Virus record (IMG/VR): IMGVR_UViG_3300028592_000006
Coordinates: 1 to 64,000 of that record
DNA: 64,000 nucleotides
Direction: 5' to 3' (one strand)
Source: a virus
Taxonomy: Duplodnaviria > Heunggongvirae > Uroviricota > Caudoviricetes
Shown piece after piece: positions 6,146 to 62,252 of the stretch. The notes beneath the pieces were generated by a model. That model was not told the DNA's origin. It was given only the letters and a program-made list of their open reading frames with translations, and made no database searches. Each line of letters begins with the position of its first letter. Position 1 is the first letter of the stretch. A program made the position numbers and the translations under genes.

Positions 6146-6637
6146 ATGCAACCAACACTCGAATTCTTTCGCTCGATACTATCATACGAACCCGAAACCG
6201 GCCTGCTTCACTGGCTAAACAATCGAGGACGCAATAAGCGTAAAGGAAAGCAGGCTGGTTGGGTTGCAGAACGCGGATACATCGTGATCCAAGTAGAGGG
6301 CAAACAATACGCCGCCCACCGAGTGGCATGGCTCCTGATGACCGGTGAATTCCCGGCTATCCACATCGACCACATCGACGGAGTCACCTCCAACAATAAA
6401 TGGTCCAACCTGCGTCAGGCCACTCCTTCCCAAAACGCACAAAACCGGCGTTTATACAAAAACAACACCTCTGGACACAAAGGCATTTGCTATCACCCCG
6501 GCAAAAAGAAATGGATAGCGGTTCTTCGTGCTAAAGAGCAAAAACTATCCAAAGCATTCAAGGAACTTGAACAAGCCGTCGAATGGATGAAGCAAGCTCG
6601 TCTGGCTATGCACGGCGAATTCGCCCGCTTCTCCTAA
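6146..6637 (+). CDS. HNH homing-type endonuclease (HNH_3 plus AP2-like DNA-binding region)
   Basis: IDHIDGVTSNNKWSNLRQATPSQNAQN HNH motif; GHKGICYHPGKKKWIAVL AP2-like; start taken at internal Met of ORF 6047-6637. Confidence 0.75.
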   Translation: MQPTLEFFRSILSYEPETGLLHWLNNRGRNKRKGKQAGWVAERGYIVIQVEGKQYAAHRVAWLLMTGEFPAIHIDHIDGVTSNNKWSNLRQATPSQNAQNRRLYKNNTSGHKGICYHPGKKKWIAVLRAKEQKLSKAFKELEQAVEWMKQARLAMHGEFARFS

Positions 6638-6779: not shown

Positions 6780-7073
6780 GTGGCAATGGCCACAACGTCG
6801 TCAGGTGCGTCACAGCCTGAACCAAAGAACAAAGCACTACTCGTTATGAAGACACACAATCCATTCAGGAAGCGCAGCAGGTATGACCGCATTTGCGTGT
6901 GGTTCAACGTCTCCGGTGTTCCGACCCGGCGCTATTGCACGAAAACCTACCGCACCCGTGAAGGAGCCTTGGGTTTGGTTCGCAGCAATGCGGATGGGAC
7001 TCACCGGCTTGCCACCGCTGCCCATGCAGCCTTCATCCACCCCGTCATTCTCATTGAGAAGCTCAAGCCATGA
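6780..7073 (+). CDS. Hypothetical protein
   Basis: 97 aa ORF whose TGA overlaps the ATG of the next gene (ATGA coupling typical of this block). Confidence 0.3.
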   Translation: MAMATTSSGASQPEPKNKALLVMKTHNPFRKRSRYDRICVWFNVSGVPTRRYCTKTYRTREGALGLVRSNADGTHRLATAAHAAFIHPVILIEKLKP

Positions 7074-7450
7074 AAACACTCGCCATTACCGTGAATAAGT
7101 TCGGCCGGGATCACCCGGTGGCGGACCTTCACCTCTACTGCGGTCGGACACCCAAGATGCCGCTCATTCCACCCATGGTAGATGCAGGCTTGGGTAATCC
7201 GTTCTGGATGGGTTCTGAAAAAGACCGCGACCAAGTCTGCGAGCAATACGCCGACATGCTCGATGCCCAACCGCTGCACCCACACTGGAAGCGCATCCGC
7301 CGAATTGCTGAACACCTAGTGGCGGGTCGCTCGGTGGCTCTCTACTGCTACTGTGCTCCCAAGCGCTGCCATTGCGACACCATCCGGGCGCACGCCATCC
7401 GGATTGCAACCGAATGGACCACCGATGAGCGCTTCGCGCTGGAGCACTAA
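7070..7450 (+). CDS. DUF4326-like protein
   Basis: Motif LYCYCAPKRCHCDTI characteristic of DUF4326. Confidence 0.55.
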   Translation: MKTLAITVNKFGRDHPVADLHLYCGRTPKMPLIPPMVDAGLGNPFWMGSEKDRDQVCEQYADMLDAQPLHPHWKRIRRIAEHLVAGRSVALYCYCAPKRCHCDTIRAHAIRIATEWTTDERFALEH

Positions 7451-16029: not shown

Positions 16030-16493
16030 CCACTCCACGACAATACACCGATGAGGAACGCCGGAGCAACCTCGCCCGTCTGGCCAAGGCCCTGCTCTCC
16101 CGGAAGTTCAAGGTGAGCTTCGAGATGGATTGCTTCGCGTTCAATCCCCATTCCAAGGTAGTACCTGCTCCTTTCGAAGTGGCTAACATCTGCGGAACTT
16201 CCTGCTGCGCACTCGGTCACGCTCCCTTCGTGATCAACGACGTGAATGATGGAGAGCGCTGGATGCAATATTCCAACCGGACCATGCCAATGCGAGCTGG
16301 TGGAGGCGCTGACTCTCGCGATTGGGATTTCCTGTTCGGTCAGTATTGGCCTGACGACAAGAAGCAGTTTGCCGCACGGGCTTTCCTCTACCTCACCGAA
16401 GGCACCCCTGACGACTTCGACGAGGATTGCTACGGGGAGGATGAATACACGGTGGTGGGACCGAAGCGCTTCGACCAATTTATCATCAAATGA
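16026..16493 (+). CDS. Hypothetical protein, CGTxCCxxGH paralog family member
   Basis: ANICGTSCCALGHAPF ... DWDFLFGQYW ... FAARAFLYL. Confidence 0.55.
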   Translation: MTTPRQYTDEERRSNLARLAKALLSRKFKVSFEMDCFAFNPHSKVVPAPFEVANICGTSCCALGHAPFVINDVNDGERWMQYSNRTMPMRAGGGADSRDWDFLFGQYWPDDKKQFAARAFLYLTEGTPDDFDEDCYGEDEYTVVGPKRFDQFIIK

Positions 16494-16723
16494 AAAAGCC
16501 ACGCACCAAGATCAACCCGGGTAACCGGAAGAACCTCGACACCATCAATGCCGCGGCCCGGGACGGAAACCTGTGCCTCATGCTCTGCCATTGGAAGGAC
16601 TCCGGGAAACCGGTGGATGTGCTGTGCGCGGTGAACCGGCAGGAGAATAGTGATTCGGCCTTTGTGCCGCTCGCCACCTTGTTCGATGGCAACCCCTACG
16701 AGTTGCTGTTGCCGCCGCAATGA
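16490..16723 (+). CDS. Hypothetical protein
   Basis: 77 aa; ATGA-coupled. Confidence 0.4.
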   Translation: MKKPRTKINPGNRKNLDTINAAARDGNLCLMLCHWKDSGKPVDVLCAVNRQENSDSAFVPLATLFDGNPYELLLPPQ

Positions 16724-28896: not shown

Positions 28897-29640
28897 ATGC
28901 ATTTGCACGAGCTACTGGCCGTAGAGGGCAATCAACAGACCCAGGCCAACAAGGTCCGCAAGGAACTCGAGTCCACCTTCGACAAGAAGCGACACCTGTT
29001 CGAGCGGAAGATTGTCACCTTCACTTCCAGCACCGAGGGATCGGAGCCGGTGGTTGAGGAACAATCGGACATCAACACCACGGTCTCGAAGGAGATCCAG
29101 TGGATCAAGGGACACCTGACCAAGGCTCTCGACCTTGAATACCAGATTGCCGAGACCAACACCATTGCCCGTGCGGACGTGGAGCTGGACGACGGATCGG
29201 TTCTACTCAAGGCGGTGCCTGCCACCTCGCTGCTGGAGCTACAGAAGCGCATGGCAGAGCTGCTGGAGCTGGCCAAGGCCATTCCCACCCTCGACCCTGC
29301 AAAGGGCTTCCAGGCCGATCCTGCGGCCGGGGAAGGGGTGTTCCAGGCACGCATCGTCAACCGGGACCGGACCAAGAAGGTGCCGAAGGCATTCGTTGCC
29401 TACGAGGCCACCAAGGAGCACCCGGCACAGGTCCAGATGTTCAACGAGGATATCAAGACCGGCACCATCACCACCCAGGAGTGGTCGGGGATGATGACGC
29501 CTGCCGACAAGGCGGCGGTGCTGGACCGCATCGAGTCCTTGACTCGCGCCATCCGTGCGGCACGCTCACGGGCGAACACCGCGGAGGTGGATCGCAAGAA
29601 CAAGATTGGCGATGCCATCTTCACCTACATTTTCGGGTAA
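28897..29640 (+). CDS. Hypothetical protein (247 aa)
   Basis: Balanced composition; last protein gene before tRNA-like cluster. Confidence 0.55.
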   Translation: MHLHELLAVEGNQQTQANKVRKELESTFDKKRHLFERKIVTFTSSTEGSEPVVEEQSDINTTVSKEIQWIKGHLTKALDLEYQIAETNTIARADVELDDGSVLLKAVPATSLLELQKRMAELLELAKAIPTLDPAKGFQADPAAGEGVFQARIVNRDRTKKVPKAFVAYEATKEHPAQVQMFNEDIKTGTITTQEWSGMMTPADKAAVLDRIESLTRAIRAARSRANTAEVDRKNKIGDAIFTYIFG

Positions 29641-29740: not shown

Positions 29741-29790
29741 ACCCAACCGCAGCCCGCCACCGAATGCAGGCATCCATCCAAATCCAGGCC

Positions 29791-29818
29791 GGGGGTTCGA
29801 ATCCCCTCTCCGACGCCA
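29791..29818 (+). tRNA. tRNA 3' fragment (T-arm GGGGG-TTCGAAT-CCCCT, acceptor 3' strand CTCCGAC, discriminator G, CCA)
   Basis: Canonical T-loop and CCA end; no matching 5' half upstream. Confidence 0.5.
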
Positions 29819-29845
29819 TCAGCCCATCACGGTGGGTTGATCATC

Positions 29846-29870
29846 GTCGGAGTAGCTCAGTGGTAGAGCA
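29846..29870 (+). tRNA. tRNA 5' fragment (acceptor GTCGGAG exactly complementary to upstream CTCCGAC, TA, D-arm GCTC-AGTGGTA-GAGC)
   Basis: Canonical D-arm; no foldable anticodon/T-arm/3' acceptor downstream. Confidence 0.45.
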
Positions 29871-29921
29871 TGGAGATCAGGTTCGAAAGGATGCTGTCGC
29901 CCGAGGGGCACCAGGCTGCAA

Positions 29922-29993
29922 AAGCGCATAGCTCAATAGTAGAGCATTCGACTTATAATCGAACGGTTGGGGGTGCGAATCCCCCTACGCAAG
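29922..29993 (+). tRNA. tRNA-like gene, anticodon UAU (Ile-type) with poorly paired acceptor stem
   Basis: D-arm GCTC-AATAGTA-GAGC, anticodon arm TTCGA-CTTATAA-TCGAA, variable CGGTT, T-arm GGGGG-TGCGAAT-CCCCC; acceptor 5' AAGCGCA vs 3' TACGCAA pairs only 4/7. Confidence 0.4.
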
Positions 29994-29999
29994 ACAACC

Positions 30000-30040
30000 G
30001 GGGCGGGTGGCAGGCTAGTCACCCGTCCCACTTTCTTTTT
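30000..30040 (+). terminator. Rho-independent terminator
   Basis: GGGGCGGGTG-loop-CACCCGTCCC followed by ACTTTCTTTTT immediately after tRNA-like cluster. Confidence 0.65.
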
Positions 30041-30086
30041 CACCAACAACCACCATGGAAACCATCCAGCCACTGCCAATCCAGCC

Positions 30087-30326
30087 ATGAATGTCGCGGA
30101 ACTGATCGAAATACTCAAAGAGGAGGACCCGATGGCACTGGTCGTCCTGTCCCGTGATCCTGAAGGGAACGGCTTCAATGAGTGTCGTGGATTTTCCACC
30201 GACTGCTATGACCCGGACGGGCGCGAACTCGGCTTGGCGGAACTAACTCCCGAGCTCAAAGCGAAGGGCTACACCGACGAGGATGTCTTGGAGGACGGGG
30301 TGCCTTGTGTCACCCTATGGCCATGA
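30087..30326 (+). CDS. Hypothetical protein
   Basis: Internal Met MNVAELIEIL of ORF 29967-30326. Confidence 0.4.
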   Translation: MNVAELIEILKEEDPMALVVLSRDPEGNGFNECRGFSTDCYDPDGRELGLAELTPELKAKGYTDEDVLEDGVPCVTLWP

Positions 30327-30769
30327 GGAAGGCCAAGGGACCACCGAGGAAACCGAAGCGCCGGAACAGCAAGGTTGAGCGTCCCTACAACGGGGGCGAA
30401 TGGACCCTTGCCCGGATGAAGGCCTTCATCTTCTCCGCGCTCCGCGGTGCCCGCTGGCCGGTGAAATACCAGGTCATCAAGGAGGCCTTCGTCGAGCACG
30501 GCATCAACCCCAAGACCGGACGCTCCTGCAAACTGCACCGGTGCTCCGCGTGCCTCAAGCTGGTTCCCCAGAAAGAGGTGCGGGTGGATCACATCGAACC
30601 CATCGTCCCCATCGGCCATGAATGGGCGGCGGAAGGACACTTCCTTGGCACCAACTGGGACATGGTCCTGAGACGGATGTTCGTCGAATCCGAGGGCTTG
30701 CAGGCTCTGTGCGAGGGGTGCCACAATCTTAAGTCGTCAGCGGAACGGGAAGCCCGCAAGAACCAATGA
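30323..30769 (+). CDS. HNH endonuclease
   Basis: CSACLKL ... VDHIEPIVP ... LCEGCHNLK; start taken at ATG overlapping previous stop. Confidence 0.65.
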   Translation: MRKAKGPPRKPKRRNSKVERPYNGGEWTLARMKAFIFSALRGARWPVKYQVIKEAFVEHGINPKTGRSCKLHRCSACLKLVPQKEVRVDHIEPIVPIGHEWAAEGHFLGTNWDMVLRRMFVESEGLQALCEGCHNLKSSAEREARKNQ

Positions 30770-31194
30770 TCCAAGAACCATTCACCCTGGTCGGGAAAGC
30801 CCGCCAGATTGCCGCTAAAGCCCATTCCAACCAATGGCGTCGTGACGGGATCACACCCTACATCGTGCATCCGATGCAGGTGGCCTTGAGGCTATCCCAT
30901 TATCCGGAAGAAGTCCGGGCAACAGCATGGCTCCACGATGTGTTGGAGGATTCGGCCTACAAGGCGGGATTCCTACGGGAGAATGGTATCCCGGAATCCG
31001 TGATTGAAGCCGTAGTGGTGCTGACCAAGCGTGAAGGGGTCCTTTACACGGATTACATCGAGCAGATCAAAGCCCACCCATTCGCCCGGCACGTGAAAAT
31101 TGCAGACATCCTCTGCAACCTTGCCGACAACCCGACGAACAACCAGATCCGCAAGTATGCGGAAGCGCTGTTGATCCTTGTCGATCCTGCCTGA
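30766..31194 (+). CDS. HD-domain (p)ppGpp hydrolase-like protein (small alarmone hydrolase, RelA/SpoT-type HD)
   Basis: PYIVHPMQVALRL ... AWLHDVLEDS matches the His...HD...ED signature of Rel/SpoT hydrolase domain. Confidence 0.75.
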   Translation: MIQEPFTLVGKARQIAAKAHSNQWRRDGITPYIVHPMQVALRLSHYPEEVRATAWLHDVLEDSAYKAGFLRENGIPESVIEAVVVLTKREGVLYTDYIEQIKAHPFARHVKIADILCNLADNPTNNQIRKYAEALLILVDPA

Positions 31195-31296
31195 ACCAAT
31201 TTCCCGGCCGGTGGTCCTTCCCTTGTCCGCACGTTGGGGGACGTGTGAGTTGCAGGGGTGGCCCCGGTCGGGTTCCTTTTTGAAAGCCCGAGAGGA

Positions 31297-31715: not shown

Positions 31716-32735
31716 TTGAATGACACCGCCCACAGGGCACAACCAACCAAAACAATGCCAGCAGGAATCACATCTCGCGACCGCCAGACATCTACTCAGA
31801 TGGCATGGCACGGTAAAACAATCATCGTCGATGAAGTCACACGCTCCAATTCAATGGACTGGGATGTCATCGAGTCGCCCATCTTCTACAACCGCCCGGT
31901 TGAAGGGCCGTTCGGGGAAGTGACGCCGCAATACCTCGAGGACCCCGAATACAAGCGCCTCATTGCCACCGACGACGGCAAGCCGGTCGGTCCACCGTAT
32001 GCCCCGAGCTACACGCCGTCGAGCGTGGCCAAGTTCTGGGAGGTGATCAACAAGGGCATGGGTGACACGCCCTACAAGATCGTGTCAGCCGGCTCGGTGG
32101 ATGACCGCTGCAAGATCTTTGCCTCCATCCAGACCACGGAGGGATTCATGGTCGGGGACCGGGAGTTCAAGGACTACGTGACCATCCTTGATTCATTCGA
32201 CAAGTCGTGCTCACTCACCGCGCTCTACAGTAATGTCTGCGTGGTGTGCGCTAATACGTTCGCCAGCGCCCTCCAGTCGGGGAAGGTAGTCGGAAAGGCC
32301 AAGCACACGCTGATGCTCGACGTGAACATCCAGCGCCTGATCGACGCCATTGACTCGTTCGTTGGCACCAGCGCCTACTTCAAGCAGCTCCTGCAACGGG
32401 CACACGAGACACCATGCACCCGCGACGAGGCGCATGCCTGGTTCACCGGACTGGAATGCCGCAATGCCGAGCACCTGACCAATGGCATCCGCCAGAAGAC
32501 GGCGCGCATGGCAGAGTTGTTTTCCGGTGGCCGCGGCAACGAGGGACTCACCCGTTTGGATGCTTTCTCCGGGCTGACCGAGTTCTACACCCGTGAATCG
32601 AGCCGGTCCTCGGACAACCAGTCCTACTCGAGTGAATTCGGCACCGCCGCGCAAACCAAGCGCTTCGTGGTCGATAACTTCGAGAAGACTTGGGATAAGT
32701 TCCGCAAGGAAGGCGAAGCCCTGTTGTCGGCATGA
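31716..32735 (+). CDS. DUF932-like phage/plasmid protein
   Basis: AWHGKTIIVDE N-terminal region and size resemble DUF932 (TIGR03299) proteins; weak. Confidence 0.45.
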   Translation: MNDTAHRAQPTKTMPAGITSRDRQTSTQMAWHGKTIIVDEVTRSNSMDWDVIESPIFYNRPVEGPFGEVTPQYLEDPEYKRLIATDDGKPVGPPYAPSYTPSSVAKFWEVINKGMGDTPYKIVSAGSVDDRCKIFASIQTTEGFMVGDREFKDYVTILDSFDKSCSLTALYSNVCVVCANTFASALQSGKVVGKAKHTLMLDVNIQRLIDAIDSFVGTSAYFKQLLQRAHETPCTRDEAHAWFTGLECRNAEHLTNGIRQKTARMAELFSGGRGNEGLTRLDAFSGLTEFYTRESSRSSDNQSYSSEFGTAAQTKRFVVDNFEKTWDKFRKEGEALLSA

Positions 32736-33064
32736 ATACCAACTTTACGCCGGGGCCATGGAAGGTCCACTTCAACGTCCCGACCGCCATCTACCCGGGG
32801 CACATCATCAAGCAGGATGACAACGTCCAGCTTCCGATTTGCAACGTCCCGGAAGGCGGCGGAACCCATGGCAAGGGCATCTACCGGGCCAATGCAATTC
32901 TGATCGCGGCGGCACCGGAGCTACTTGAAGCCTTATGTGGGCTAAGTGAATGGGTTTTACGCCCGGAAATTTCCGATTGGTTAAATCGAAGTGGGGTAAT
33001 CGGAAATTATGGTGAGGTGATACTCAATGCCCAAAGCGCAATTCGGAAAGCCCTTGAAGGATAA
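32732..33064 (+). CDS. Hypothetical protein
   Basis: 110 aa. Confidence 0.45.
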   Translation: MNTNFTPGPWKVHFNVPTAIYPGHIIKQDDNVQLPICNVPEGGGTHGKGIYRANAILIAAAPELLEALCGLSEWVLRPEISDWLNRSGVIGNYGEVILNAQSAIRKALEG

Positions 33065-33302
33065 AGCCATGGGATGCCACAAACTGGTTGATGGAAGCGG
33101 AAAGGTGATTGGAATCGTCACCTGCTCGAACGTCTATTCCTACAAGGGATTCCTTTTCGAGATGCACCATTTCTGTGGTCCTACCCGGCTCAAAAGGAAC
33201 GGGGAGCACCACAAATATTTCGGTCCCAGGTTCTGGAAGGTATTTGAGGAGTGGTTCAAGCTAACCGACAAGCAGAAGGCTAAGACCTTCATTTCAGGAT
33301 GA
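33027..33302 (+). CDS. Hypothetical protein
   Basis: 91 aa; alternative start ~33069. Confidence 0.4.
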   Translation: MPKAQFGKPLKDKAMGCHKLVDGSGKVIGIVTCSNVYSYKGFLFEMHHFCGPTRLKRNGEHHKYFGPRFWKVFEEWFKLTDKQKAKTFISG

Positions 33303-33607
33303 AGCCGAAATTCACCATTGGACCATACAAGGTTGTCCCGAATCCTTTGAACAGCAGTTTAAAGATCGAGGCGGAAGTAAGCGATGGGAGCTTCGTGGTG
33401 GCAGTTACTCCTTCCTTCCAGGAGTGTGACATACACAATGCAAGGCTTCTTGCTACCGCACCCGAACTGTTTTGGATGCTCAAGGAGGCTCGCTCGCTGG
33501 TGGAGCGGGAAGCCACGATTCGAGCACGAGGTGAACTCGGACAGCCCTACTTGCGAGACTTTCAATCCCGCATCGACAAGCTGCTCAACAAGTCATTGAA
33601 CGGATGA
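33299..33607 (+). CDS. Hypothetical protein
   Basis: 102 aa. Confidence 0.45.
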   Translation: MKPKFTIGPYKVVPNPLNSSLKIEAEVSDGSFVVAVTPSFQECDIHNARLLATAPELFWMLKEARSLVEREATIRARGELGQPYLRDFQSRIDKLLNKSLNG

Positions 33608-39217: not shown

Positions 39218-39517
39218 TTGTTCGACGCCATGAAACTGACCTACGGAGACGGAAATTTGCAGACCCAACAAGGGAAACTCGCGAACGGAAATCGGTGCAT
39301 CTGCATCACGAAACACGATCAAGGCCGATCCATTGGCTTCGTGCCGAAGGAGTGGGAAGCCGTAGTCGAAGAGGACTCAATCGACGCGATTCTTGAGTTC
39401 AAAAACATTCAGTCAGCGCGGACGCTCCAAGACGAACTAGGAGAGATGATTGCGATCTGGAGCCGCGAGCAAGGCCGCGAATTGCCAGAGTCGAATACCC
39501 CGGATCAGGCACCGTAG
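39218..39517 (+). CDS. Hypothetical protein
   Basis: 99 aa. Confidence 0.4.
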   Translation: MFDAMKLTYGDGNLQTQQGKLANGNRCICITKHDQGRSIGFVPKEWEAVVEEDSIDAILEFKNIQSARTLQDELGEMIAIWSREQGRELPESNTPDQAP

Positions 39518-39551
39518 GTTGCCTGCATCCAACGGTTCAACCCAACAAATT

Positions 39552-40004
39552 ATGAAGGTATTGTTTTTAGATTGTGACGGTGTGCTTAACACCCGTCCGG
39601 GATCATTGGATGAAGACAAGCTGGCGATGCTTGCAGGCATCGTGAATGAAACGGCCTGTGACGTGGTTGTGTCCTCATCATGGAGGACGGTCCCGCACAT
39701 GCTCAAAAGGCTGTCAGAAGCCCTTTTGGATCGCCAGGTGGTCATCCACGGGGTGACTCCGGAGCTTTCCTCGACCCCCCTTCCATGGGGGTTCTCGATG
39801 GAGCGCCCACGCCATGAGGAAATCACCGCATGGTTGCTCAAGCACCCGGAGGTGGAGTCCTACTGCATCCTCGACGACATGAGCTACGCCGACGATGGAT
39901 CAGGGAGGTTTGTCCAAACCAACGCGCACGAGGGTTTGACCGACAAGGCGGCTCAAACGGTCATTGGCACCCTGCTCCAACCTTTAGTTCCGACTAACGC
40001 ATGA
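39552..40004 (+). CDS. HAD-superfamily phosphatase-like protein
   Basis: Motif I LFLDCDGVLN (DxDGxL); internal Met MKVLFLDCDG of ORF 39450-40004. Confidence 0.55.
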   Translation: MKVLFLDCDGVLNTRPGSLDEDKLAMLAGIVNETACDVVVSSSWRTVPHMLKRLSEALLDRQVVIHGVTPELSSTPLPWGFSMERPRHEEITAWLLKHPEVESYCILDDMSYADDGSGRFVQTNAHEGLTDKAAQTVIGTLLQPLVPTNA

Positions 40005-41268: not shown

Positions 41269-41437
41269 AAGACCTCTACTCCAACTGGCCCGAGGGCTGG
41301 CATTACGACGAGCATGACGGGCGGGTGTACGATGACGCCCATTTCTCGAGCTTCAGCTTCCCGGCGTTCGTCAAAAACTTCGACCTCAAGCGAAAGGAAC
41401 CCGATGAGCAACCTGAGCCAGGAAAAGCTGGATGAGA
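41265..41437 (+). CDS. Small hypothetical protein
   Basis: 57-codon ORF starting ATGAAAGACC with ATGA coupling; overlaps next gene. Confidence 0.25.
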
Positions 41438-41997
41438 TTTACCAGAAGCTTATTTCAGCGAAATCAACTCCCATCGGATTCGATCCGAAAACCACCGTTC
41501 CCCAATTCTTCTTTATGACCGCACAGAACAAAGAACGCCCGTATGGGCACGCAACCTCCCTGCTTGAAGCCGAAATTTTGATGTCTCACCCCGTGGGGGA
41601 CGACAGCGAGCAAACAACGGCTTACCTCGACGAGAAGCGCAAGCAACTGGAAGATGCCCGCACGCTGCTGGTCTCCGGCCAGATTGGAGGCTTCGGTGCC
41701 TTGGTGTCGCTCGTGCGAGCTTGGGGTGAGGACAAGGGCCTGACGGGAGCCAACGGCAAGGCCACGGTGTTCGGCCAGTTCGAGAAGCTGGAGGAGGAAA
41801 AGGAGGAACTCCGCGGAGCCCTCAATGATTCCAACTTCGAGGAGATCGAAGATGCCATCGGGGACTGCACGGTGGTTCTCATCCTGCTCGCGGAGCTGGC
41901 CGGAACACGCTTCGAGAAGTGTCTGCAAGGTGCCTACGACATCATCAAGCACCGCACTGGCAAGATGGTTGGCGGTGTCTTCCAAAAAGACCAATGA
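41404..41997 (+). CDS. MazG-like nucleoside triphosphate pyrophosphohydrolase
   Basis: QFEKLEEEKEELRGAL ... EIEDAIGDCTVVLILLAELAG matches the all-alpha MazG/HisE EExxE...D signature. Confidence 0.7.
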   Translation: MSNLSQEKLDEIYQKLISAKSTPIGFDPKTTVPQFFFMTAQNKERPYGHATSLLEAEILMSHPVGDDSEQTTAYLDEKRKQLEDARTLLVSGQIGGFGALVSLVRAWGEDKGLTGANGKATVFGQFEKLEEEKEELRGALNDSNFEEIEDAIGDCTVVLILLAELAGTRFEKCLQGAYDIIKHRTGKMVGGVFQKDQ

Positions 41998-44390: not shown

Positions 44391-47300
44391 TTAGTCCTTG
44401 GGGAGCTGTTTCAACAGGTCTCTCCGTCGTGCCGAGCGGTAGTCCCGCAGGAACGGCAGCACCTCGCTGACCAGGTAGGCGGCAATGTCGAGCGGTTTGG
44501 CTTCTCCGACCGAACGACCGGCCAACACCGCCGCATCCACCGCGTCATACGCCACGCTGGTCGGGGCGGTCAGGTTGGCTGCCGCCTCCACCGCATTCGG
44601 CCGGTGTTCCCTCACACCCACCTTGTCGCGCTCATACCATGCCTCTGCCGGCTTCACTCCGGACGTGAGCGAGGCGGCACTCACCGCAGCATCATTCATG
44701 ATCGGCTTGATCATGCCGGTGATCGGAGAGTAACCGGCCAGCACCCCTGCCACCGGCATTGCCTGCAACAGCTCCATGCCGACCCGTGATGCAAGTTCAG
44801 CTTTAGCCGAGGCCAAAGAGGCATCCTTGTCCTTCCACGATTGGAACAATTCCTTCTGAGGGCCGACCAGCAGGTCCTTGAGCGCCGCCACGAACGGGTT
44901 GCTGTCCTTCTGGGCGGCGAGCAGGTCGTTGGCTTTCTTCTGTGCCTTCTTGGCTGCCTTCTCCTCGTCGTCACCTCCGAGCATGTAGAAGGCCATCAAC
45001 AGTAATGGCACCATGGTGTGGACCTTGCCGAACTGAAACAGGATGTTCTGACCCAGCGTGCCCACCATGTTCTCGATGGCGTCCTTCCTTGTCCGGTTCG
45101 GGTCCGGGTCGGTGTCGGGGTCGGTGGTCATCAATCCCGGAAGAAGAGCGGTCAGGTTAGAAGCGGTGGTGGCGGTGTGGTTGCTGAACCGCACCAGCGA
45201 CTTGAGCAGGCTCGACCATACCGGACTGTCAGAGTGGCTCTGGAACGGCATAGCCTTCTTGCTCATGTCCGACTGGCCCATCATGTCGTTGACCTTCATG
45301 GTGGCCATCTGGGTTGCTGCAATGGGGATCTGGCGGCTATTCAGCTCAAGCAGTCCGTCCACGTCGGCAGGGGTGTGCGGGCTTCCGCTGCGCCGCATCT
45401 CACCGAGTAACTCCGCAAGGAAGATGGCGCGGGAGATTACCTTCTCGCCCTTGCCGATGGTCAGGTTGAGAGCCGCTTCCCCGATGTTCTCATACTCCTT
45501 GAGGATCTTGCCGGCCCATGCCTTGCCTTTGCCGACCCCGAAGCGGAGCTGGTGCTTGAGTTCGTTCCTCGCCACGTCCTGGCCATCGACACCACGGAAG
45601 TTGACATAGACCGACACCTCCTTGGTGAAGGCGTTGACCTTGTCGTAGAACGTCCTGTCCGTGAACCGCGAGCTGATCAACCGTGGCAGGATGTGGAGGA
45701 AGTCCGAAGCCGTCTGCCATTCGCCGATGACCAGCTTCTTGATCGGGAAGAACACCGAGGGCGGGAAGGTCTGGTTCCACATCTGCTGTGCACTCGCCAG
45801 CGCCCGCACAATGAACACCGAGGACAAGAACCTCGTGGCCTCCGCAAACCCGGTGTTGACCACACCGATCTGCGAATCATTGAAGAGAAGGTTTTCCACT
45901 TCACCGGTGACGGCTGCAATGGCGACCTGGAACTTGCGCATGTCCTGCGAGTAGGCCGGACGCAACTGCATCTGTGGAGTGAAGATGCTGGCTTCCATCG
46001 GATCCACCACCGGCACCCCGTTCGGGCTCTTGATCCGTCCCAGCATCCTCCGGATCACGTCGTAGTTGGCACTGACGTTCGCCCGATACAACGAGTCCTC
46101 GAGGATGTTGAAGGGAGCCGATAGGCCGTTCAGGCTGATCGGCCGCAGGACCGAGGCATCCGCAGGGTTCTTCTCGTGCCGTCCGTAACCACCGTAGAAC
46201 GGCGAGTTCTTCATGGACACCACGTCCGCAGGGTCTGGAATCCACTTCCCTTCCTTGGTCACCCTGTGATCCCTTTTGGTCGGGTTGGCGGCATAGGCCA
46301 TCCGCAGCGGCACCGAGCCATACGTCTTCGGCGACGGGGTCATGCCGTCGTGCTTCCATTCGTTGTGCTGTTCACCACCCAGTGGGGTTTCCACCGGCTT
46401 GGACAACATTGCCCGGTGGACCGCCGTGGCGTTGTAGGCATCACCAAGTTGCTCGCGGATCACCTTTGCCATGTTCTCCACCGCGTCCCGCTTGCCGTCG
46501 CTGGTCTCCTTCAGGAATGCCTCCCTGAGCCCGGCAATCACCTTGCGGGCGGCAATGGCCTGTGCCTCTTCCTGGGTGGTGTTCTGGTTCTCGTAGATGG
46601 CGGTGCCGTAGTCAGCCATTGCTCCCGAATCCCTGATGATCTTCACCACTTCCTTGGCTAATGGCAGGTCGCGGATCAGGTCGAGATGGTTTGCATTCAG
46701 GAAGCGCTGCCCGAACCGGGAGAACGCCTGTGCCTGCAACTTGTCCAGGCTGGCAAGATCGCGCATCCCTTTGCTCAAGCCCTGATACCACTTCGTGAGC
46801 GCCTCGTTGATCGAGTAGCCGGAAGCATCCGACAAGCCGTCAAGCTGGGCTACCAGATAGGCCATGGCGTGGTCCTTGGCGTGCCGTCCGACCTTCTTGG
46901 CCTCCTTGGCGATGTGTTCCTGTGCCTCCTTGTGGGCTGCCTGGTGGCCCGCCCGTCCGGTGTTGCCGTCGAACCCGTGCTGGATGAATGCCAGCAGGTG
47001 CATGGCGGTCTCCCGTGCCAAGGCCGACTTGATGAAGCGCGAGCGCATCCGTCCATCCTGACCATGGGCATACCTGAGCAAGGCCTGGTTCACAGTTCCA
47101 TCCTGCACCGACAACCCGCTGACCAGCTTGGCCATCACCTGCTCGGCCTCAAGCTCCGCAAACACCCGGGCGAACAGGTCGATCAGGTTGAACTTCTGCA
47201 TGGCATCCTCGGAAGCCGCGAAGCTTCCATCCTCGATGGCCTTGAGCACCGCGTCGATCTCGTTGCGAAGCTCCTTCGGCTTGCCGGTCTTCTCGTCGAA

Positions 47301-50300
47301 CATCTCCGGCAACCCGTGGGCGTGCACCAGCTTCTCGACCAGGGAGCCGTAGAACTCCATCGCCTTCCGGGTGTTGTCCCCGTCCAGCTTCTTGTTGGTG
47401 CGCTTGGACACCACGAATTCCTCGAGTCCCTTCTTGAACTCACCGGAGAACAACTTGCCAGCCTCGACGATGCTCATCGTCTTGCCATCCGTCAGCTTGA
47501 AGCCGGTGCCCATCCAGTTGCCGGTGGGTTCCGCCGCATTGTCCATGAACGACGGACGGCCCTGGCTTGCTTGGAACGGTCCACCCACCGGATTGAATGC
47601 GCGCAGCACCAGATTCTCCAGCTTGCGGTTGACGTTGCGGGCGGTGATCCGTCCCGGAAATGCTTGCATCAGCCGTTGCTTGGCGTCGATTGGCAACAAC
47701 ACGATCTTGCTGCCGTCCACATCGTTCTCGTCGAACACCTTGCCGATCAGGTCACGACGTGCCCGGTAGTTCGAAGGAAGCCTCAACCGCTTGATCCGGT
47801 CCTTGCCCTTGGTGAATGCCATGGTTTCGCCGTTGGTGGCGAAGGCGATGGCCTCGGCGGTCATTCCCCTGAGCTTCTGTTGTTCTACTTCGCTGGCTTG
47901 ATCGAAACGCGACCGGACAATGGCGTCCTCCACCTCCGTGCGACGCACCGCTTCCTGCACCATCAGCATCGGGTTGAACCCGTTGAGAGTGTCGGTGGTG
48001 CCACGGATGCGGCGGTAGTGGTCGTCCACCCGGTCGTTGGCAATCTCGGTGAGTGCCATGCGGAGCGCTTCGCGCCTGACGTAGTAGTCCCTCTGGGCGT
48101 TCGGGTCGTTGTTATAGGCACGGGCGTTCTCGGCAATGTCCCTAGGACGCATGCCCGGGAAGGTCTCGTGGGCCGGGTCGATCAGCTCGATCTGGATGTT
48201 GCCGGACAGGTTCTTTCCGTCCGCCCCCTTGATGCCGCTCACCCGGCGATACTTGCCAAGCATCGTCCGTCCACCGGTGTCGAACTGGAGGGCTCGCTGG
48301 GCCTGCATGTTCTCGAGCTTCTTGCGGGCGTTCTCGAGCTGCCAGTTGGCATTGTCCCGTTCGGCCAGCTCCTTGCCGGTCATCAGCTTCAATTCGGCGA
48401 TCTGCCGTCCTTCCTCGGTGCTGAGAGCCAGCGATCCGATCAAGGCGTCCATCACCCCGCCCTGTTCCATCCGTCCAATCAGGGTGTCCAGGTTGTTGTA
48501 GATGTCGGTGTCGGTCATGCCTTGGGCTGCCTTGAGGAAAGCCGTGAGCTTCTCGCGGTGTTCGCGCTCCTGACCCTTCTCCTTGCCCTTGAGAGCCACA
48601 CCAAGGCCTCCGGCCAGCTCGGCGGTGAATTCCTCCAGCGCCTGGTCCATCAGGGGCTTCATGAAGCTCTGAGGGTCCAAGCCAGCCTCAAGGCGCTTGT
48701 GCTGCTGCTGCAACTCCTCGAAGTCCAGCGTGTCGGCATCACCTTCGATCAAGGGAACGTGCTGGCGGACCTTCACGTCCTTCAATCCAAGCTTCTTCAG
48801 CCGGTCGTTGACCGTGTCATTGACGATGGCGTTGATGAAGCGGGCCGACTTGTCGAACCAACGGATGTGGCGCTCCATCGCTTGCACGGCATCGGTCTCG
48901 GCATTCACGTCGAACCTGGCACGGGCGGCATCCCGGTCACGGATCAGGCGATACAGCTCGTTGAGGCGGTAGCTGGCTTGCGGCATCAGCTTGCCGAACT
49001 CGTTTTCAAGCCTCTTCTGAATCTGGTGGTTGGCCAGACGGGTCTCGTAAGCCGCACGGTCGTGGGTGCGGGTCGAAATCGAACGGGCCAGGTCACCGAC
49101 CAAGGCGGCAAGCTGCTCCTTGAGCACCGTGTTCTGCAAGTCCTCCACTTCCAGCACCCGTTCCGCCGTCAGCCTGAGTGGCTTGTTGAGAACCTCCTGC
49201 GCCTGCTCCATTTCCTTCTCAAGAGCCCACTGAGCCTCGTCCTGTCCACGGAGCGCATCCATCACCTGCTGCCGATACATCGGCAGGTTGGGGATCAGGC
49301 TTTCAGCCTCACCGAGCAAGGCGTCATCCAGCACCACTTCCACATGAGCCATTGGCACCTTGGTGGAATTCGGGTTCTTCCGCTGCGCCTGCCGGATCGC
49401 ATCGACCAGCGCCAGTCCGGCCTTGGAATCGACCGATGGCACCTTCGACAACCATGCCGACTGCTCCATGCCCCGGCGGACCATGTTCATCTTGAGCGTC
49501 ATGGTGGTGGTTCCACCGACGTTCGGGATGTTCAGGCGGTTGGCCTCTCCGACCAACAACAAGGTCGGGTCCTCGGCAATGGGTCGGTTGCGGGCCTGGA
49601 AGATCGGTCCTGCCGGCGATCCCGGTGGTTCACGGTCGAGGATTTCATGACGGGTCCGCACCTGGCCCTTCAGGCTCTTGCGGTTGGCAGGGATCATCGG
49701 GGATTCAACCCGTGGCAACAAGTCGTTGACCGCCTTGGCCCGCTCCAAGGCGCGGGCGAGATGGTTGAAGACCACCATGTCGGAAGGAGGAAGAACCTCG
49801 TTGTAAGGGTCCTTCTTATCCTCCTTGCGGGCACGGGCCTTCTCGCGCATGAACTCGCGGGTTGTAGCCTGTGCCACCTGAAGCTTCTCACCGGAGACTT
49901 CCACGTCTTCGACGGGATACTCGAAGTCTTCCGACTCCTGCTCTCCCAACCGGATGGCGACCTGATCAAGTGCCAGTTGATAGGGATCCTTGAGACGATC
50001 CTCGTCCACCGTGTCCTGTTCCAGGTCGTCCGAGTCCTCCTTGTCGAAGGAACGGAGCACTTGTTCGTGCATGTCCTCCAGATTGGCGTCCGTGGCGTCA
50101 TCAAGCTCGTAGGGGGCGTAGTCAGCAGCCACCTCGCGCAAGCGCCTCACAGCGATGCTGAGGGCATCCACGGCTTGATCCGACAAGCCGCTCTCTTCCG
50201 CTTCGTCAGGACCAAGGTAAACCTCGTCAAAGGCCGCCTTGTATTGCGGATTGGTCAGCAGGTTGGCCACCAGCAGCACATCCGATCCATACCCTTCCGT

Positions 50301-53300
50301 GAAGTTCACGGGGCTCATCAGCTCTTCGTTGCGGCTAATGCGCTGGAATTTCTCCAGTGCCCGCTGGACGAAGAACTTCTGCTCGGACTCGCGGAGCTTC
50401 GCCACATACTCCTTGAAGTGGGGAATCTTCAGCGTCTTGCCAACGTTGATGTATTCCTTGGTCACATCCCGCAAGGGATCGCCAAGCTCCTTCTCCATGG
50501 TCTCCACGTCAAAGGCCGGGGCAAACGTCTCACGGATGATCCCGGCAAGGCTTTCCACCTGTGCCCTGGCCGTTGGATCGTCACCATAGGACATCAGCAC
50601 CCGGTGGATTGCGGCTGCCTGTTCCTCGCGGCTCGCGCTGTCCTGCGGTGCCCACACGATATTCGGCTGGCCGTCCTTGCCTGGAATCACCCGCAGGCCC
50701 ACCTGCGATTGACCCATCCATTGCTCCTTGTCGGTCGGGAACACCACCAACGTCCTGCCGAGCATGTTGGTCAGCAACAACGAGACGGACGGGTTGTCAC
50801 CAAGGAAGATGTCATACTCGGAAAGGAACCGGCTGTCCTGCACGCCGAGCTTTCCTTCATCCATTCCCCTCTTGAACACCCGGGCAAGCTGGTCCTTCTC
50901 GTCCTGCGGCAGGTCGGAAGCCATCACCGCGTCCTGTGCGATGACGATTTGCTCGCCGGCATTGCGGCGGAACTCTTCAACCCGCTTGTCTTCCTTCTCC
51001 TTCTTGAACTCCAGCAGGTCGGCAAGGAACGACTCCGGATCAAAGCTTCCCGCGCTTGAAAAGCGGGACAAGCTCCAGCGCGGGTTCTTGTCGTAGAACT
51101 CCTGGGCAAGCAACTGGAATGCCTCGCCTTCCTCATTGCTGCCAGGAAACACACCCATCAGCCCGCGGACGACGATGTCCGGAATCTCACCGGTGCCGGA
51201 CAGGTGCTTGGTCATCACCATGCGCGTGAACTCGCGGGAGTCCTCGATGTTGCCTTCCGGGAAGTGGGAACGGAAACCGATGAAGGTCAGGGCCTTTGAC
51301 AGCCAGATCTTCATCCCCTTGTCGTTCTCGTTACGCAGGGCGAAGTCCTTGGCGGTCGAGGCATCGGTCACCTTATCATTCTCGAAGTCCGGCAGCGTCA
51401 CGCCGTGCTCGCCGGTGTCCGGGCGGTTTTGCGGGCGGTTGTCCGGGTCGAGGTCGTTGTAGGACTGCGGGATGACGGGCTCGAACCTTTCGTCAAAGCC
51501 GGAGTCCACCGGCTTGATGAAGGTCTCCTGATAGAAGGCTCTCCCGGCGCGGCTGTCCCCGGCTTCCGCCAGATCAAAGCGCTCCTGCTCGGTCATCCTC
51601 ACGTTGACCCGCTTCACCCGGTTGGCGATCTTCATCTCCTCGCGGCCCTTCTGGAGCTTGCGCAGATCCTCCAGCAGGTCGGAGGCATACAGCGATCCCA
51701 CCATGTAGGGGGATGCATTGGTCGCCATGTAGTTCAGGCTGAACTCGAGGCTGTGAATGGTCGGGATGTCCAACATCGAGTCCCGCAATTGGAGCATCTC
51801 CTCGTGATCCGGGCGGTAGGCACCGTCACGGATGGTCCGGATGGCTTCCTGTTCGACGTTGCGCTGCCAGTTGGCGTTGTTGAACTCCTTGACCATGCGA
51901 CGGGTCAGGCTCACCGCCGCGTTGGTCGCCCGCAGCGAGTTGACCAGGCCCATTACATGCGAGCTGCCGGCCGCCGGGGCAAGCCGCTGGTTGAAGGCCG
52001 TCAGGACATTGCTGATGCCACCCTTGAACTTCAGGTTGCCCTGTTCGTCCCTCGCGAAGCGATCCGCGAAGCTTTCCGCTTCCACGGTCTCGAAGAACTG
52101 CCCCATCTGGCCGAACAGGTGCTGCTTCATCTCCACCACGACCTTGGACAAGCCCTCAAGGCGTGGCTGGAGCAACAGGTTGGCACGGGCCGCCGGGCTC
52201 TGCCTGCCATCCATCTCGGCAATGATCTCGTCGGGATTCGCACGCTGCGCGATGTGGGCAATCCACTTCTCCGCCATGTCGATCACCTTGATCAGGTTGT
52301 TGATGCCACCGAGGTTGATTGCCTCCCCCTTCTCAAAGCGCCGGTCGATATCGAACATCTCGTCCATGCCCGGGAATTGCGGAAAAGCCATGCGAGGCGA
52401 CTCATAGTCGATCTGCTCGTATTCATTGAGGGTTCCCTCGAGATTGAATCCGGCACCTGCATGATACAGGTCGCGGTCGAAGGATGCCGGCAAGCGGTGC
52501 ATCTGGTCCGCAAGGTAGAACAACATGCGGCCGTAGCGCCCCGTGTAGGCCGCATTCGACTCGATGGCGCGCTTGTGCGCTTCGATCAATTCATGGACCT
52601 TGGAATCGTCCAGCTTGTTTGGGTTGCGCTGGTAGCCGGTGCCGGGCTTACCCGGTGGCAAGTGGCCTTCATGGTAGTCATGGCCGAAGGCATCCCCGGC
52701 TTCCACGGCTTCCGGGACATTCCTCTCGCGGAACTCAAACACTCCGGTTGGCTCTCCCGTGGCACGGGTGTCCTGCCAGCCAAGGCCGTAGTTCTCGGTC
52801 TTGTAGTCGTCGAACGAGCCAATGGCGCGGTCGGTCATGGACCGGAGCCGGGCGTTGTAATCGTTCACCGCCTTGAGATATTCCGAGAATTTCCGGTAGC
52901 GCTCTACCGAGACCGGGTCGTCAGTCGGCTTCAGCTTCGCGGCCTTCTCAAGCTCCGTGATATTGTTGGTCAGGTTGATCCGCTGTTTGACCAGTTCCTT
53001 GAACTCCTTGTGACCCTCCTGTCCTTCGACCAGGCTATCGGTGAGCGGGTTGTTGAACAGGTGGACCCGGGCGGCATTGACCACCGCATCCTTGAAGGCA
53101 TCGAAGGTCGGATAGTTCTCGGTGTCGATGAAACCGTCAGGATCAACGGTGACACCCAGCTTGGCGGCGGCACGGATCAGGGCGACCCGTCCACGGGGGC
53201 GGGAAACATCCTGCGACTGCAAATCCCGCAAGGCACCGGTGACCAGCATGGTCTCCATCCTGTTGATGCTGTCATTGACCCTTGCGAGCTCCTCGCGGGC

Positions 53301-59811: not shown

Positions 59812-59830
59812 GGACGTTAGTTGAAGCTAA

Positions 59831-61204: not shown

Positions 61205-61248
61205 GGTTACATGAATGAGAATTTATTCGAATGCGGTGACGCGAAGCT

Positions 61249-62193: not shown

Positions 62194-62252
62194 CGTGGTG
62201 GGGTGATAATGCCGGAGCTAAGGAAAACCTCAAGATTTAGGTTTCAGGACGA

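Follow-up and report, generated by a model that had tools for sequence, protein, structure and literature searches.

A predicted small alarmone hydrolase with a Rel-like base pocket encoded by an orphan phage gene

We identified, in the 64-kb window analysed here (the whole stretch of 64,000 nucleotides, taken from a 79.5-kb source contig), an orphan phage gene whose 142-aa product is, judged by its sequence and structural model, a stand-alone RelA/SpoT-family HD hydrolase without a synthetase domain, and for which we predict enzymatic activity as a small alarmone hydrolase (SAH). Its active site is intact, and its base pocket differs from that of Aph1, the closest solved relative, and looks more like the pockets of ppGpp hydrolases. 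We consider it likely that this orphan, phage-borne SAH combines a Rel-like pocket with a broadened purine range and erases host alarmone-based arrest or defence, with the metal, the substrates, the timing and the counter-defence function all predicted. Phage alarmone hydrolases that stand alone have been described before, two of them as neutralising toxSAS toxins, and the present protein is a further example that brings no new principle. The family to which it belongs is lumped by current annotation with (p)ppApp-specific Aph1, and it splits cleanly into two pocket types.

Family, fold and active site

An earlier note on this DNA had described the gene (table 1) as encoding a candidate HD-type RelA/SpoT small alarmone hydrolase with two signature motifs. 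The ORF and both motifs were found exactly as given: in the window translation, PYIVHPMQVALRL spans residues 31-43 and AWLHDVLEDS spans 54-63, and the independent JGI and Logan gene callers returned the same 142-aa product. An identical protein is already on record (P0001), and 113 homologues were retrieved at E<=1e-5, with lengths mostly of 130-170 aa. The family assignment was borne out by profile, sequence and fold searches alike. PHROG 990 matched at E=1.1e-39 in the profile search, and the N-terminus of TIGR00691 (positions 3-81) at E=4e-11. The sole Pfam match was HD_4 (PF13328), which aligned over profile positions 1-53 of 156 and scored 22.8 bits, under the gathering cutoff of 27.2, because the architecture of the protein is shortened; a precomputed PF13328 match is present on many of its close homologues. 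This sole match, together with a length of 142 aa that is too short for a synthetase domain, agrees with the earlier statement that no such domain is present.

Among 23 matches in a sequence search of the PDB, every one at E<=0.03 was an RSH protein. The best solved relative was Aph1 (adenosine 3'-pyrophosphohydrolase 1) from a Bacteroides caccae prophage (PDB 7smg; Ahmad et al. 2023, PMC10083569), with E=4.5e-19 by phmmer, 1e-37 by profile and 5e-26 by blastp at 38% identity, whereas the hydrolase domains of long RSH proteins scored E=5e-8 or worse in the single-sequence search. The AlphaFold (AF2) model (pLDDT 95.7, pTM 0.90) contains eight helices by DSSP and forms, as in Aph1, a compact protomer without helix 0 and helix 9. 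Foldseek matched it to 7smg with a TM of 0.80-0.87 and an rmsd of 1.8-2.3 Å (TM 0.87 for the full-length superposition), followed by MESH1, PaSAH, RelH, TtRel and SpoT; all 50 listed PDB matches were RSH hydrolase domains, and the search for a better-fitting, unrelated HD family, which the earlier note had named as a ground for rejecting its assignment, returned none. The closest solved enzyme, by sequence and by fold, remains a ppApp-specific one.

The predicted metal-binding and catalytic residues are H20, H35-P36, H57-D58, E61-D62, K111, D114 and N118, and they align with those of the Rel, SpoT, Mesh1 and Aph1 hydrolases, as the earlier assignment had implied. None of the 113 homologues departs from H57, D58 or E61, and between 106 and 112 of them retain each of the other catalytic positions. 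In Aph1 numbering, H19, H33, H53-D54, E57, D110 and N114 have equivalents that vary little or not at all across this set, and 110 of the proteins retain that of D58. The residues H35, H57, D58 and D114 would most likely hold a divalent metal (Mn2+ or Mg2+), with E61-D62 acting as the catalytic pair, and the enzyme would most likely cleave the 3'-pyrophosphate off hyperphosphorylated purine nucleotides.

The base pocket and the expected substrates

We compared the base pocket with that of Aph1, whose (p)ppApp signature comprises D24, R96, D116, R119, K133 and Y134; our reconstructed Aph1 numbering recovered all six of these published residues. The pocket of the SAH is lined by R25-R26-D27, by D121 and by the C-terminal K130-Y131, the last two corresponding to K133-Y134 of Aph1. 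In the remaining positions, D24 is replaced by R25, K25 by R26, R96 by Q100 and D116 by A120, and the R119 loop, ITRLNE in Aph1, is deleted. The two proteins are thus alike in length (142 vs 149 aa), catalytic set, the K133/Y134 pair and phage-borne origin, but the SAH is without D24 and R119, the residues whose mutation breaks the (p)ppApp exclusivity of Aph1. Because only two of the six specificity residues are kept, we conclude from the alignment that the SAH is not a canonical Aph1.

Arg25-Arg26 align with R43-R44 of Thermus thermophilus Rel (TtRel), which stack on guanine (PMC10083569). When D24R and R119A are combined in a double mutant, Aph1 becomes able to hydrolyse ppGpp, with a turnover of ~3 per min compared with ~478 per min for the wild type on ppApp; since the turnover of the mutant is slow, this pocket state shows permissiveness and not preference (PMC10083569). 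Modest ppGpp activity was also reported in the same study for two tested Aph1 homologues, from clusters E and I. A similar picture emerged from the hydrolase domains of the long RSH proteins (TtRel 6s2t, S. aureus Rel 7oiw, RelSeq 1vj7 and SpoT 7qpr), which share the HD fold and the catalytic residues with the SAH. Their GQxRR/K-x-G-x-PYIxHP motif contains both guanine-stacking arginines, and their short HN-x-x-(T/D)...P-x-x-x-Q loop resembles that of the SAH more than the Aph1 loop does; however, they form part of larger synthetase/hydrolase proteins of several domains and have additional helices, whereas the SAH is single-domain. Since the pocket is Rel-like (R25-R26, no R119 loop), guanine nucleotides would be expected as substrates. 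We propose that (p)ppGpp would be accepted, that (p)ppApp probably would be too, perhaps along with tRNA ends bearing a 3'-pyrophosphate, and that the enzyme would not be (p)ppApp-specific as Aph1 is.

The two pocket states are sharply separated in the family. Across ~200 sequences the position-24 state and the loop covary perfectly: in two sequence sets, every protein with D24 has the R119 loop (16/16 and 27/27) and every protein with Arg at this position is without it (93/93 and 42/42). The RR/short-loop type accounts for 119 of 183 non-redundant relatives and, among the 85 loci looked at, for 42, with IMG/VR viral contigs making up nearly all of them; it dominates among uncultivated viral contigs. 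D121 is conserved at 79% within this subgroup and could hydrogen-bond either purine. This branch carries naturally both of the changes (Asp24 to Arg and loss of the Arg119 loop) that give ppGpp cleavage in Aph1, and is a natural equivalent of the specificity-broadening double mutant. It is possible, and we suggest it only tentatively, that the RR/short-loop proteins represent a distinct, uncharacterised and largely virus-borne branch of compact SAHs, that is, minimal (p)ppGpp or dual G/A hydrolases that are encoded by orphan phage genes, often beside tRNA genes, and counter the stringent response and alarmone-based abortive infection. If ppGpp or dual activity holds true, the two pocket types would provide a sequence rule separating phage SAHs that target the stringent response from those that target (p)ppApp toxins, and a ppGpp hydrolase as small as ~140 aa might serve as a tool.

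The functional reference points among phage SAHs are the stand-alone proteins of the Salmonella phages PVP-SE1 and SSU5, which neutralise all five tested toxSAS toxins on co-expression in E. coli (Jimmy et al. 2020, PMC7229694), as the earlier note had stated for free-standing phage SAHs in general. The PVP-SE1 protein gp220 (PbcSpo) likewise has no synthetase partner and is the closer of the two to our SAH (39% identity over 107 residues, E=3e-17); in contrast to the RR/short-loop pocket of the SAH, it shows the full Aph1-type pocket (NQKDKGG; NSDVRRL; RKY), and it reaches 169 aa with a longer C-terminus. The SSU5 protein (PaSpo, SSU5_099) carries Arg at the Aph1 D24 position (GQKRKY) (PMC7229694, PMC9712102), but is more distant (29% identity, E=2e-7) and, at 213 aa with a long C-terminal extension, not compact.

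Gene neighbourhood and association with tRNA genes

The window contains phage markers (ERF, DnaB, P22-Y8K6-like and TerL-like genes), and the SAH gene lies among replication/early genes, not beside portal or MuF genes. A megablast search of 50,697 phage genomes, with 20 kb of the window as query, and a tblastn search with the TerL-like ORF gave no match; we therefore describe the genome as one without a cultured relative, whose phage identity rests on PHROG and Pfam matches and on gene organisation. As to the host, relatives point to Verrucomicrobiota. The ORF at 41314..41997 has no record in the contig index.

Table 1. Features at and around the SAH gene (positions in the window).
Feature	Position	Strand	Evidence
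YrlA (Y RNA-like) tRNA mimic, sub-threshold	29761..29902	+	RF02553 33.6 bits (gathering 69), E=1.4e-5
tRNA-like gene, anticodon UAU	29924..29991	+	Rfam RF00005 54 bits, E=8e-9
Strong terminator-like hairpin	30000..30029	+	12 pairs, 9 G-C, then T-run
orf79, 79 aa, first gene of putative three-gene unit	30087..30326	+	gene calls
HNH endonuclease ORF, 154 aa	30305..30769	+	PHROG 1985 E=4.9e-11; Pfam HNH E=0.002, below cutoff
SAH gene (HD-only RSH hydrolase, 142 aa)	30766..31194	+	ATG start
Weak terminator-like hairpin and T-run	31260..31284	+	5-pair stem, consensus match only
DUF932 ORF	31716/31854..32735		DUF932 E=9.5e-16

The stop codon of the HNH ORF (TGA) overlaps the start of the SAH gene in an ATGA, and the two are therefore probably co-transcribed and translationally coupled. 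Upstream, the strong hairpin separates the RNA genes and a DUF7873 gene from orf79, HNH and SAH; downstream, the weak hairpin lies 66 nt after the SAH stop and may mark the end of this unit. No sigma-70-like promoter was found, and the boundaries of the unit were placed by the hairpins alone; a longer reading of orf79 (29967..30326) gave no Pfam or PHROG match. The SAH appears to be expressed together with the HNH gene, as part of a short early/replication-region unit. The tRNA-like gene, 775 nt upstream of the SAH gene, has an acceptor stem that is shortened and contains mismatches, and its CCA end is not encoded; its minimum-energy fold is a cloverleaf, and it was missed by ARAGORN. The YrlA-like element has a T-arm and a D-arm as well as an acceptor-like stem of 6 bp into which 33 nt are inserted, and its fold z-score is -2.2. 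A sister contig is 100% identical across this RNA region and thus offers no covariation signal.

Relatives of the SAH were found on 111 IMG/VR contigs. No conserved partner was observed in four relatives or in 34 non-redundant viral loci of the RR type, and clustering of 653 ORFs from around RR-type SAH genes gave no neighbour that is conserved. tRNA genes were the recurrent element: in 5 of 9 tRNA-bearing loci the RR-type SAH lies no more than 350 nt from a tRNA gene, compared with 2.1 expected (P ~0.02), and in two loci (L029 and L043) it lies inside a tRNA array.

This proximity bears on the possibility that the main substrate is RNA, in which case the SAH would be a repair enzyme for tRNA ends that works with the tRNA and RNA-repair genes of the phage and takes off the 3'-pyrophosphate placed on tRNA CCA ends by CapRel-type toxSAS defences. 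The toxins CapRel, PhRel, PhRel2 and FaRel2, which modify tRNA, are neutralised by both phage SAHs tested (PMC7229694), and SSU5 PaSpo removes the tRNA 3'-pyrophosphate installed by FaRel2 (PMC11559606). The tRNA-like gene and its YrlA-like neighbour lie just upstream of the SAH, a gene with the RNA-repair domain HAD_SAK_2 lies 8 kb downstream, and 3 of 125 neighbours carry an RNA_ligase domain. However, the tRNA association is statistically weak, with no tRNA within 6 kb in 25 of the 34 RR-type loci, and tRNAs and accessory genes could merely share variable regions; the strong hairpin, moreover, stands between the local tRNA-like gene and the SAH unit. The target on tRNA is also an adenosine, which favours an Aph1-type pocket such as that of PVP-SE1 gp220 and not the Arg-Arg pair. 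We regard RNA as an unlikely main substrate, and the recurrent proximity of tRNA genes as a testable lead on the repair of CapRel-type tRNA damage.

Partner search and possible roles during infection

We searched the 64-kb window for an alarmone synthetase or toxin partner; ~15 kb of the source contig lies outside it. Neither RelA_SpoT nor Phage_Mu_F was detected by Pfam in the 92 window ORFs and the giant ORF. Pfam is blind to the Apk2 toxin domains, as controls showed the MuF domain only; a profile of the Apk2 C-terminus, built locally from three sequences only, found nothing in the six-frame translation of the 64 kb (best E=0.08). RelA_SpoT was likewise absent from the precomputed neighbour annotations and from the surroundings of four close relatives. 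The DUF7873 protein was considered as a hidden toxin and rejected, with noise-level matches only (E=0.08-0.6) and no PDB relative. Within the 64-kb window the SAH is therefore an orphan gene, as neither an alarmone synthetase nor a MuF toxin could be detected there. A toxSAS-SAH type IV pair of the FaRel-ATfaRel type would place a RelA_SpoT synthetase gene next to the SAH, and none is adjacent.

Because no cognate synthetase toxin was found in the available portion of the genome, a role in countering host arrest is likely. The SAH most likely degrades host (p)ppGpp/(p)ppApp, or repairs pyrophosphorylated tRNA, during infection; its job would be to erase alarmone-based growth arrest or defence of the host, including the stringent response and effectors of the toxSAS/CapRel and Apk types.

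The alternative that the SAH is a bona fide (p)ppApp-specific hydrolase of the Aph1 family, providing immunity to a phage Apk2/MuF toxin as in Bacteroides and Streptococcus prophages, would accord with 7smg being the best match in sequence and fold, with the compact eight-helix architecture and with the conserved K133/Y134. The gene order apk2-iapK-aph1 published for such modules (PMC12226406) is matched by our control loci from the Streptococcus prophages V22 and Javan180, in which a portal-MuF-small ORF series directly precedes a related SAH gene. At our locus, however, the genes upstream of the SAH are orf79 and HNH among replication/early genes, with no adjacent Apk2/MuF toxin or IapK detected and no MuF, RelA_SpoT or Apk2-like sequence in the 64 kb; furthermore, four of the six signature residues are missing, including D24 and R119, which were shown by experiment to enforce specificity. 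Among the larger ORFs neighbouring the SAH in the 34 RR-type loci there was a single Phage_Mu_F match, which shows no similarity to the Apk2 toxin C-terminus. We thus hold this alternative to be quite improbable. The single match likely comes from a 286-aa ORF that follows terminase- and portal-sized genes in one locus (L038); four other candidates for it proved to be DnaB-like, helicase, AAA and tape-measure proteins.

More improbable still is a promiscuous phosphohydrolase of the Mesh1 kind that serves phage nucleotide metabolism by acting on a different 2'/3'-phosphorylated metabolite (NADPH, pGpp or PAPS-like compounds), without an alarmone or defence role. In favour of it, the next-best folds include MESH1 structures bound to NADPH and PAPS (TM 0.73-0.77), an orphan bacterial SAH is reported to be metabolically promiscuous (PMC9765508), and some phage homologues lie among nucleotide-metabolism genes, such as those of PHB09 (dCMP deaminase, ligase, Nudix) and of Salmonella phage 40 (next to thymidine kinase). 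However, the sequence similarity to MESH1 is weak (E ~1e-3 vs 4.5e-19 for Aph1), the model is without the additional helix at the C-terminus that Mesh1 and PaSAH have, and no nucleotide-metabolism genes flank the SAH here.

With regard to the counter-arrest role that we prefer, the earlier note had also seen in the gene and its HNH and DUF932-like neighbours what looked like an accessory or anti-defence islet. Both neighbours are real (table 1); to our knowledge, neither HNH nor DUF932 has a known defence role, and PADLOC returned no match for the SAH and four neighbours. What stands of the islet is indirect, in that relatives of the SAH adjoin Lar, an Acb2/Tad1-like gene and DNA methyltransferases.

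Family assignment and fold of the hydrolase

The window is very likely phage DNA, as it carries long co-directional gene blocks, genes for an ERF recombinase, a DnaB helicase, two P22-Y8K6-like proteins and a DUF932 protein, a weak TerL match (PHROG 2, E = 3e-7) and matches to several PHROG-only families; a megablast search of 20 kb of it against 50,697 phage genomes revealed no cultured relative at the DNA level. The hydrolase gene is located in the early/replication block, and its position was exactly that given in the earlier note; of the two motifs quoted there, PYIVHPMQVALRL occupies residues 31-43 and AWLHDVLEDS residues 54-63. The hydrolase ATG and the stop codon of the 154-aa HNH ORF before it overlap (ATGA). 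Public gene callers predicted the same product, and assemblies from JGI, ENA and Logan contain the identical protein, on contigs of up to 79.5 kb.

All profile libraries searched assigned the product to the hydrolase half of the RelA/SpoT homologue (RSH) superfamily: PHROG 990, "metal-dependent phosphohydrolase" (E = 1e-39), TIGR00691 spoT_relA at positions 3-81 (E = 4e-11), and Pfam HD_4 (E = 8e-5), which aligned over no more than the first third of the model and so, at 22.8 bits, narrowly missed the 27.2-bit cutoff. When the sequences of solved structures were searched, every match at E ≤ 0.03 was an RSH hydrolase; the best by far was 7smg, the 149-aa (p)ppApp-specific hydrolase Aph1 of a Bacteroides caccae prophage (E = 4.5e-19 with the single sequence and 1e-37 with a family profile), followed by long Rel enzymes (5e-8) and then MESH1 (~1e-3). 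A very confident AlphaFold2 model built from 52 homologues (pLDDT 95.7, pTM 0.90) comprised eight helices and superposed on 7smg over the full length in Foldseek (TM 0.80-0.87, rmsd 1.8-2.3 Å), with MESH1, the P. aeruginosa SAH (small alarmone hydrolase), RelH, T. thermophilus Rel and SpoT next in order; 50 of the 50 listed matches were RSH hydrolase domains. The catalytic residues H20, H35, H57-D58, E61-D62, K111, D114 and N118 were all present, and each is invariant or almost invariant across 113 homologues. Thus, the HD residues align with those of Rel/SpoT enzymes and no other HD family fits better; profiles, solved relatives, fold and catalytic residues agree on the RelA/SpoT-type identity that the earlier note had proposed. 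We concluded that the hydrolase is a new, uncharacterised member of an already known kind of phage enzyme.

Base pocket and the RR/short-loop subgroup

Aph enzymes are defined by six residues, D24, R96, D116, R119, K133 and Y134; a D24R/R119A double mutant of Aph1 gains ppGpp hydrolysis, at a slow ~3 per min, and R43/R44 of T. thermophilus Rel, at the positions of Aph1 D24/K25, stack on guanine (Ahmad et al., PMC10083569). We rebuilt Aph1 residues 5-142 from HMMER alignments, with a numbering that recovers 6/6 published residues. Aph1 D24, K25, R96 and D116 correspond to R25, R26, Q100 and A120 of the hydrolase, and K133/Y134 to K130/Y131; R119 has no counterpart, a four-residue loop segment being missing. 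Two of the six signature residues are therefore retained, and both specificity-switch positions (D24 and R119) are naturally in the ppGpp-permissive state. As judged from these residues, the hydrolase is not a canonical Aph1, and its pocket predicts, without proving, acceptance of guanine nucleotides.

Among the 113 database homologues, Asp24 was accompanied by the R119 loop in 16/16 and Arg24 by its absence in 93/93. A further 85 loci, drawn nearly all from IMG/VR viral contigs, comprised 27 Aph1-type, 42 RR/short-loop (Arg at the Aph1-D24 position, R119 loop absent) and 16 other sequences. When both sets were merged and made non-redundant, 119 of 183 sequences belonged to the RR subgroup, with R25 conserved at 100%, R/K26 at 85%, D27 at 66%, N118 at 100%, D121 at 79% and Y131 at 92%; R25 and the missing loop are thus a trait of the whole subgroup rather than of one sequence. 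In its motif GQxRRDGxTPYIxHP and its short N-L-S/A-D-x-P-T-x-x-Q loop, the RR subgroup comes closer to long Rel enzymes than Aph1 comes to them. The hydrolase places a Rel-like base pocket on an Aph1-like scaffold, and the features involved covary perfectly, which is a modestly interesting refinement.

Two stand-alone Salmonella phage SAHs, from PVP-SE1 (PbcSpo) and SSU5 (PaSpo), neutralised 5/5 toxSAS toxins (Jimmy et al., PMC7229694), and SSU5 PaSpo was reported to strip the tRNA modification put on by FaRel2 (PMC11559606). We located both genes in their own genomes and compared them with the hydrolase. PVP-SE1 gp220 shares 39% identity with it but its pocket is fully of the Aph1 type; SSU5_099 carries Arg at the Aph1-D24 position, yet shares no more than 29% identity and is 213 aa long. 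Among the other cultured-phage homologues sampled, those of Salmonella phage 40, Rhodococcus phage Weasels2 and Streptococcus prophages V22 and Javan180 were Aph1-type, and that of Pseudomonas phage PHB09 represented a third pocket type. We found no experimentally tested RR/short-loop member in the publications consulted.

Gene neighbourhood and search for a synthetase partner

The hydrolase gene, the HNH gene and orf79, a 79-aa ORF, probably form a three-gene unit bracketed by two hairpins; no sigma-70-type promoter was detected.

Features of the window and of control loci
Feature	Position	Strand	Remarks
YrlA/Y-RNA-like tRNA mimic	29761-29902	+	sub-threshold, 33.6 bits vs gathering score 69, E = 1.4e-5
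tRNA-like gene	29924-29991	+	Rfam 54 bits, E = 8e-9; rejected by ARAGORN
Strong hairpin + T-run	30000-30029		5' of orf79-HNH-hydrolase
Hydrolase ORF	30766-31194	+	ATG start, 142 aa
Weaker hairpin + T-run	31260-31274		3' of hydrolase
DUF7873 ORF	28897-29640	+	E = 3.5e-67
Phage_P22_Y8K6 paralogue	32732-33064	+	110 aa
Phage_P22_Y8K6 paralogue	33299-33607	+	102 aa
HAD_SAK_2 ORF	39450-40004	+	E = 3.6e-25
4,652-aa ORF	44391-58349	-	adjoins putative structural genes
Five large ORFs	58411-63897	-	downstream of 4,652-aa ORF
HNH_3	6146-6637
DUF4326	7070-7450
DUF6117	16490-16723
MuF toxin control	L014:725-2308
MuF toxin control	L012:743-2308
MuF toxin control	L042:4273-5814

The Pfam census of 92 window ORFs plus the 4,652-aa ORF contained neither RelA_SpoT nor Phage_Mu_F. 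Positive controls revealed that Pfam is blind to the Apk2 domain that MuF toxins carry: in three control loci, Pfam-A saw Phage_Mu_F only and nothing in the C-terminal Apk2-type region. A Pfam-only screen is therefore unable to exclude (p)ppApp synthetase toxins, and we made a local profile of our own from the C-termini of three Apk2-type toxins. It scored E = 1e-94 on control locus L042, whereas a search of the window translated in all six frames detected no Apk2-type sequence (best E = 0.08). Thus, the hydrolase gene is an orphan within the 64-kb window (the source contig is ~15 kb longer).

The earlier note had also suggested that the gene lies in what looks like an accessory/anti-defence islet. 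PADLOC gave no match in the hydrolase and its immediate neighbours, which lend the islet no direct support, and HNH and DUF932 proteins are not known to act in defence. Some indirect support came from the neighbourhoods of close relatives, likewise orphans and located in the early regions of phages or prophages: two lie between DNA/SAM methyltransferases and glycosyltransferases, one (Verrucomicrobiota MAG) adjoins a DNA methylase, a Lar restriction-alleviation gene and an integrase, and one (Opitutus MAG) is 5 kb from an Acb2/Tad1-like gene. Clustering of 653 neighbours yielded no conserved partner of RR-type genes; unlike these, the Streptococcus prophage homologues come after a portal-MuF-small ORF series, which is the published apk2-iapK-aph1 order.

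By analogy with characterised relatives, the hydrolase is most likely a metal-dependent 3'-pyrophosphohydrolase, acting probably on (p)ppGpp and probably also on (p)ppApp, with 3'-pyrophosphorylated tRNA as a possible further substrate. Produced early in infection, as the same analogy suggests, it would rid the phage of host alarmone-mediated arrest or defence.

tRNA-like RNAs and other observations

Two structured RNAs occupy the 445-bp gene-free gap that precedes the three-gene unit, an unexpected neighbourhood for the hydrolase. [quoted passage not shown] Codon supplementation is an unlikely purpose because AUA is almost unused (5 of 520 Ile codons in the genome). In the YrlA-like mimic, a T-arm, a D-arm and a 6-bp acceptor-like stem interrupted by a 33-nt hairpin are recognisable; no TROVE/Ro60 protein was among the Pfam matches of the window census.

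Elsewhere in IMG/VR, RR-type SAH genes lie inside tRNA arrays at two loci (L029 and L043, with 13 and 9 tRNAs) and ~20-230 nt from a single tRNA gene at three (L020, L038 and L040), that is, at five of nine tRNA-bearing loci, where 2.1 would be expected if genes were picked at random from each locus (P ~0.02). Since toxSAS defences attack tRNA 3' ends, this proximity, although statistically weak, hints at a possible role in tRNA repair; the Arg-Arg pocket is contrary to expectation for a terminal adenosine.

The window ORF with HAD_SAK_2, the HAD domain found in RNA-repair proteins of the "Swiss army knife" kind, lies downstream of the DnaB helicase gene, at a distance of ~8 kb from the hydrolase. 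Elsewhere, 3 of the 125 neighbours of RR-type SAH genes had an RNA_ligase domain. The DUF7873 protein, encoded directly upstream of the RNA genes, has no solved relative, and was dismissed as an Apk2-like toxin, its toxin-profile match being at noise level (E = 0.08-0.6). Directly downstream of DUF932, the two Phage_P22_Y8K6 paralogues, both also matching PHROG 1273, flank a 91-aa ORF. The 4,652-aa ORF matched no Pfam family and no sequence among solved structures, and the five minus-strand ORFs beyond it had no Pfam or PHROG match. The census further identified DUF3310 (E = 1.4e-7), VWA (E = 4.5e-5) and SU10_adaptor (E = 1.3e-3), in one ORF each. A 13.9-kb contig of the same metagenome (L001, JGI 3300038441) encodes the identical hydrolase, and its RNA region is 100% identical to that of the window, but the gene calls differ (HNH 150 vs 154 aa, DUF932 311 vs 293 aa, downstream small ORFs unlike), which suggests that the two are closely related, co-occurring phage variants.
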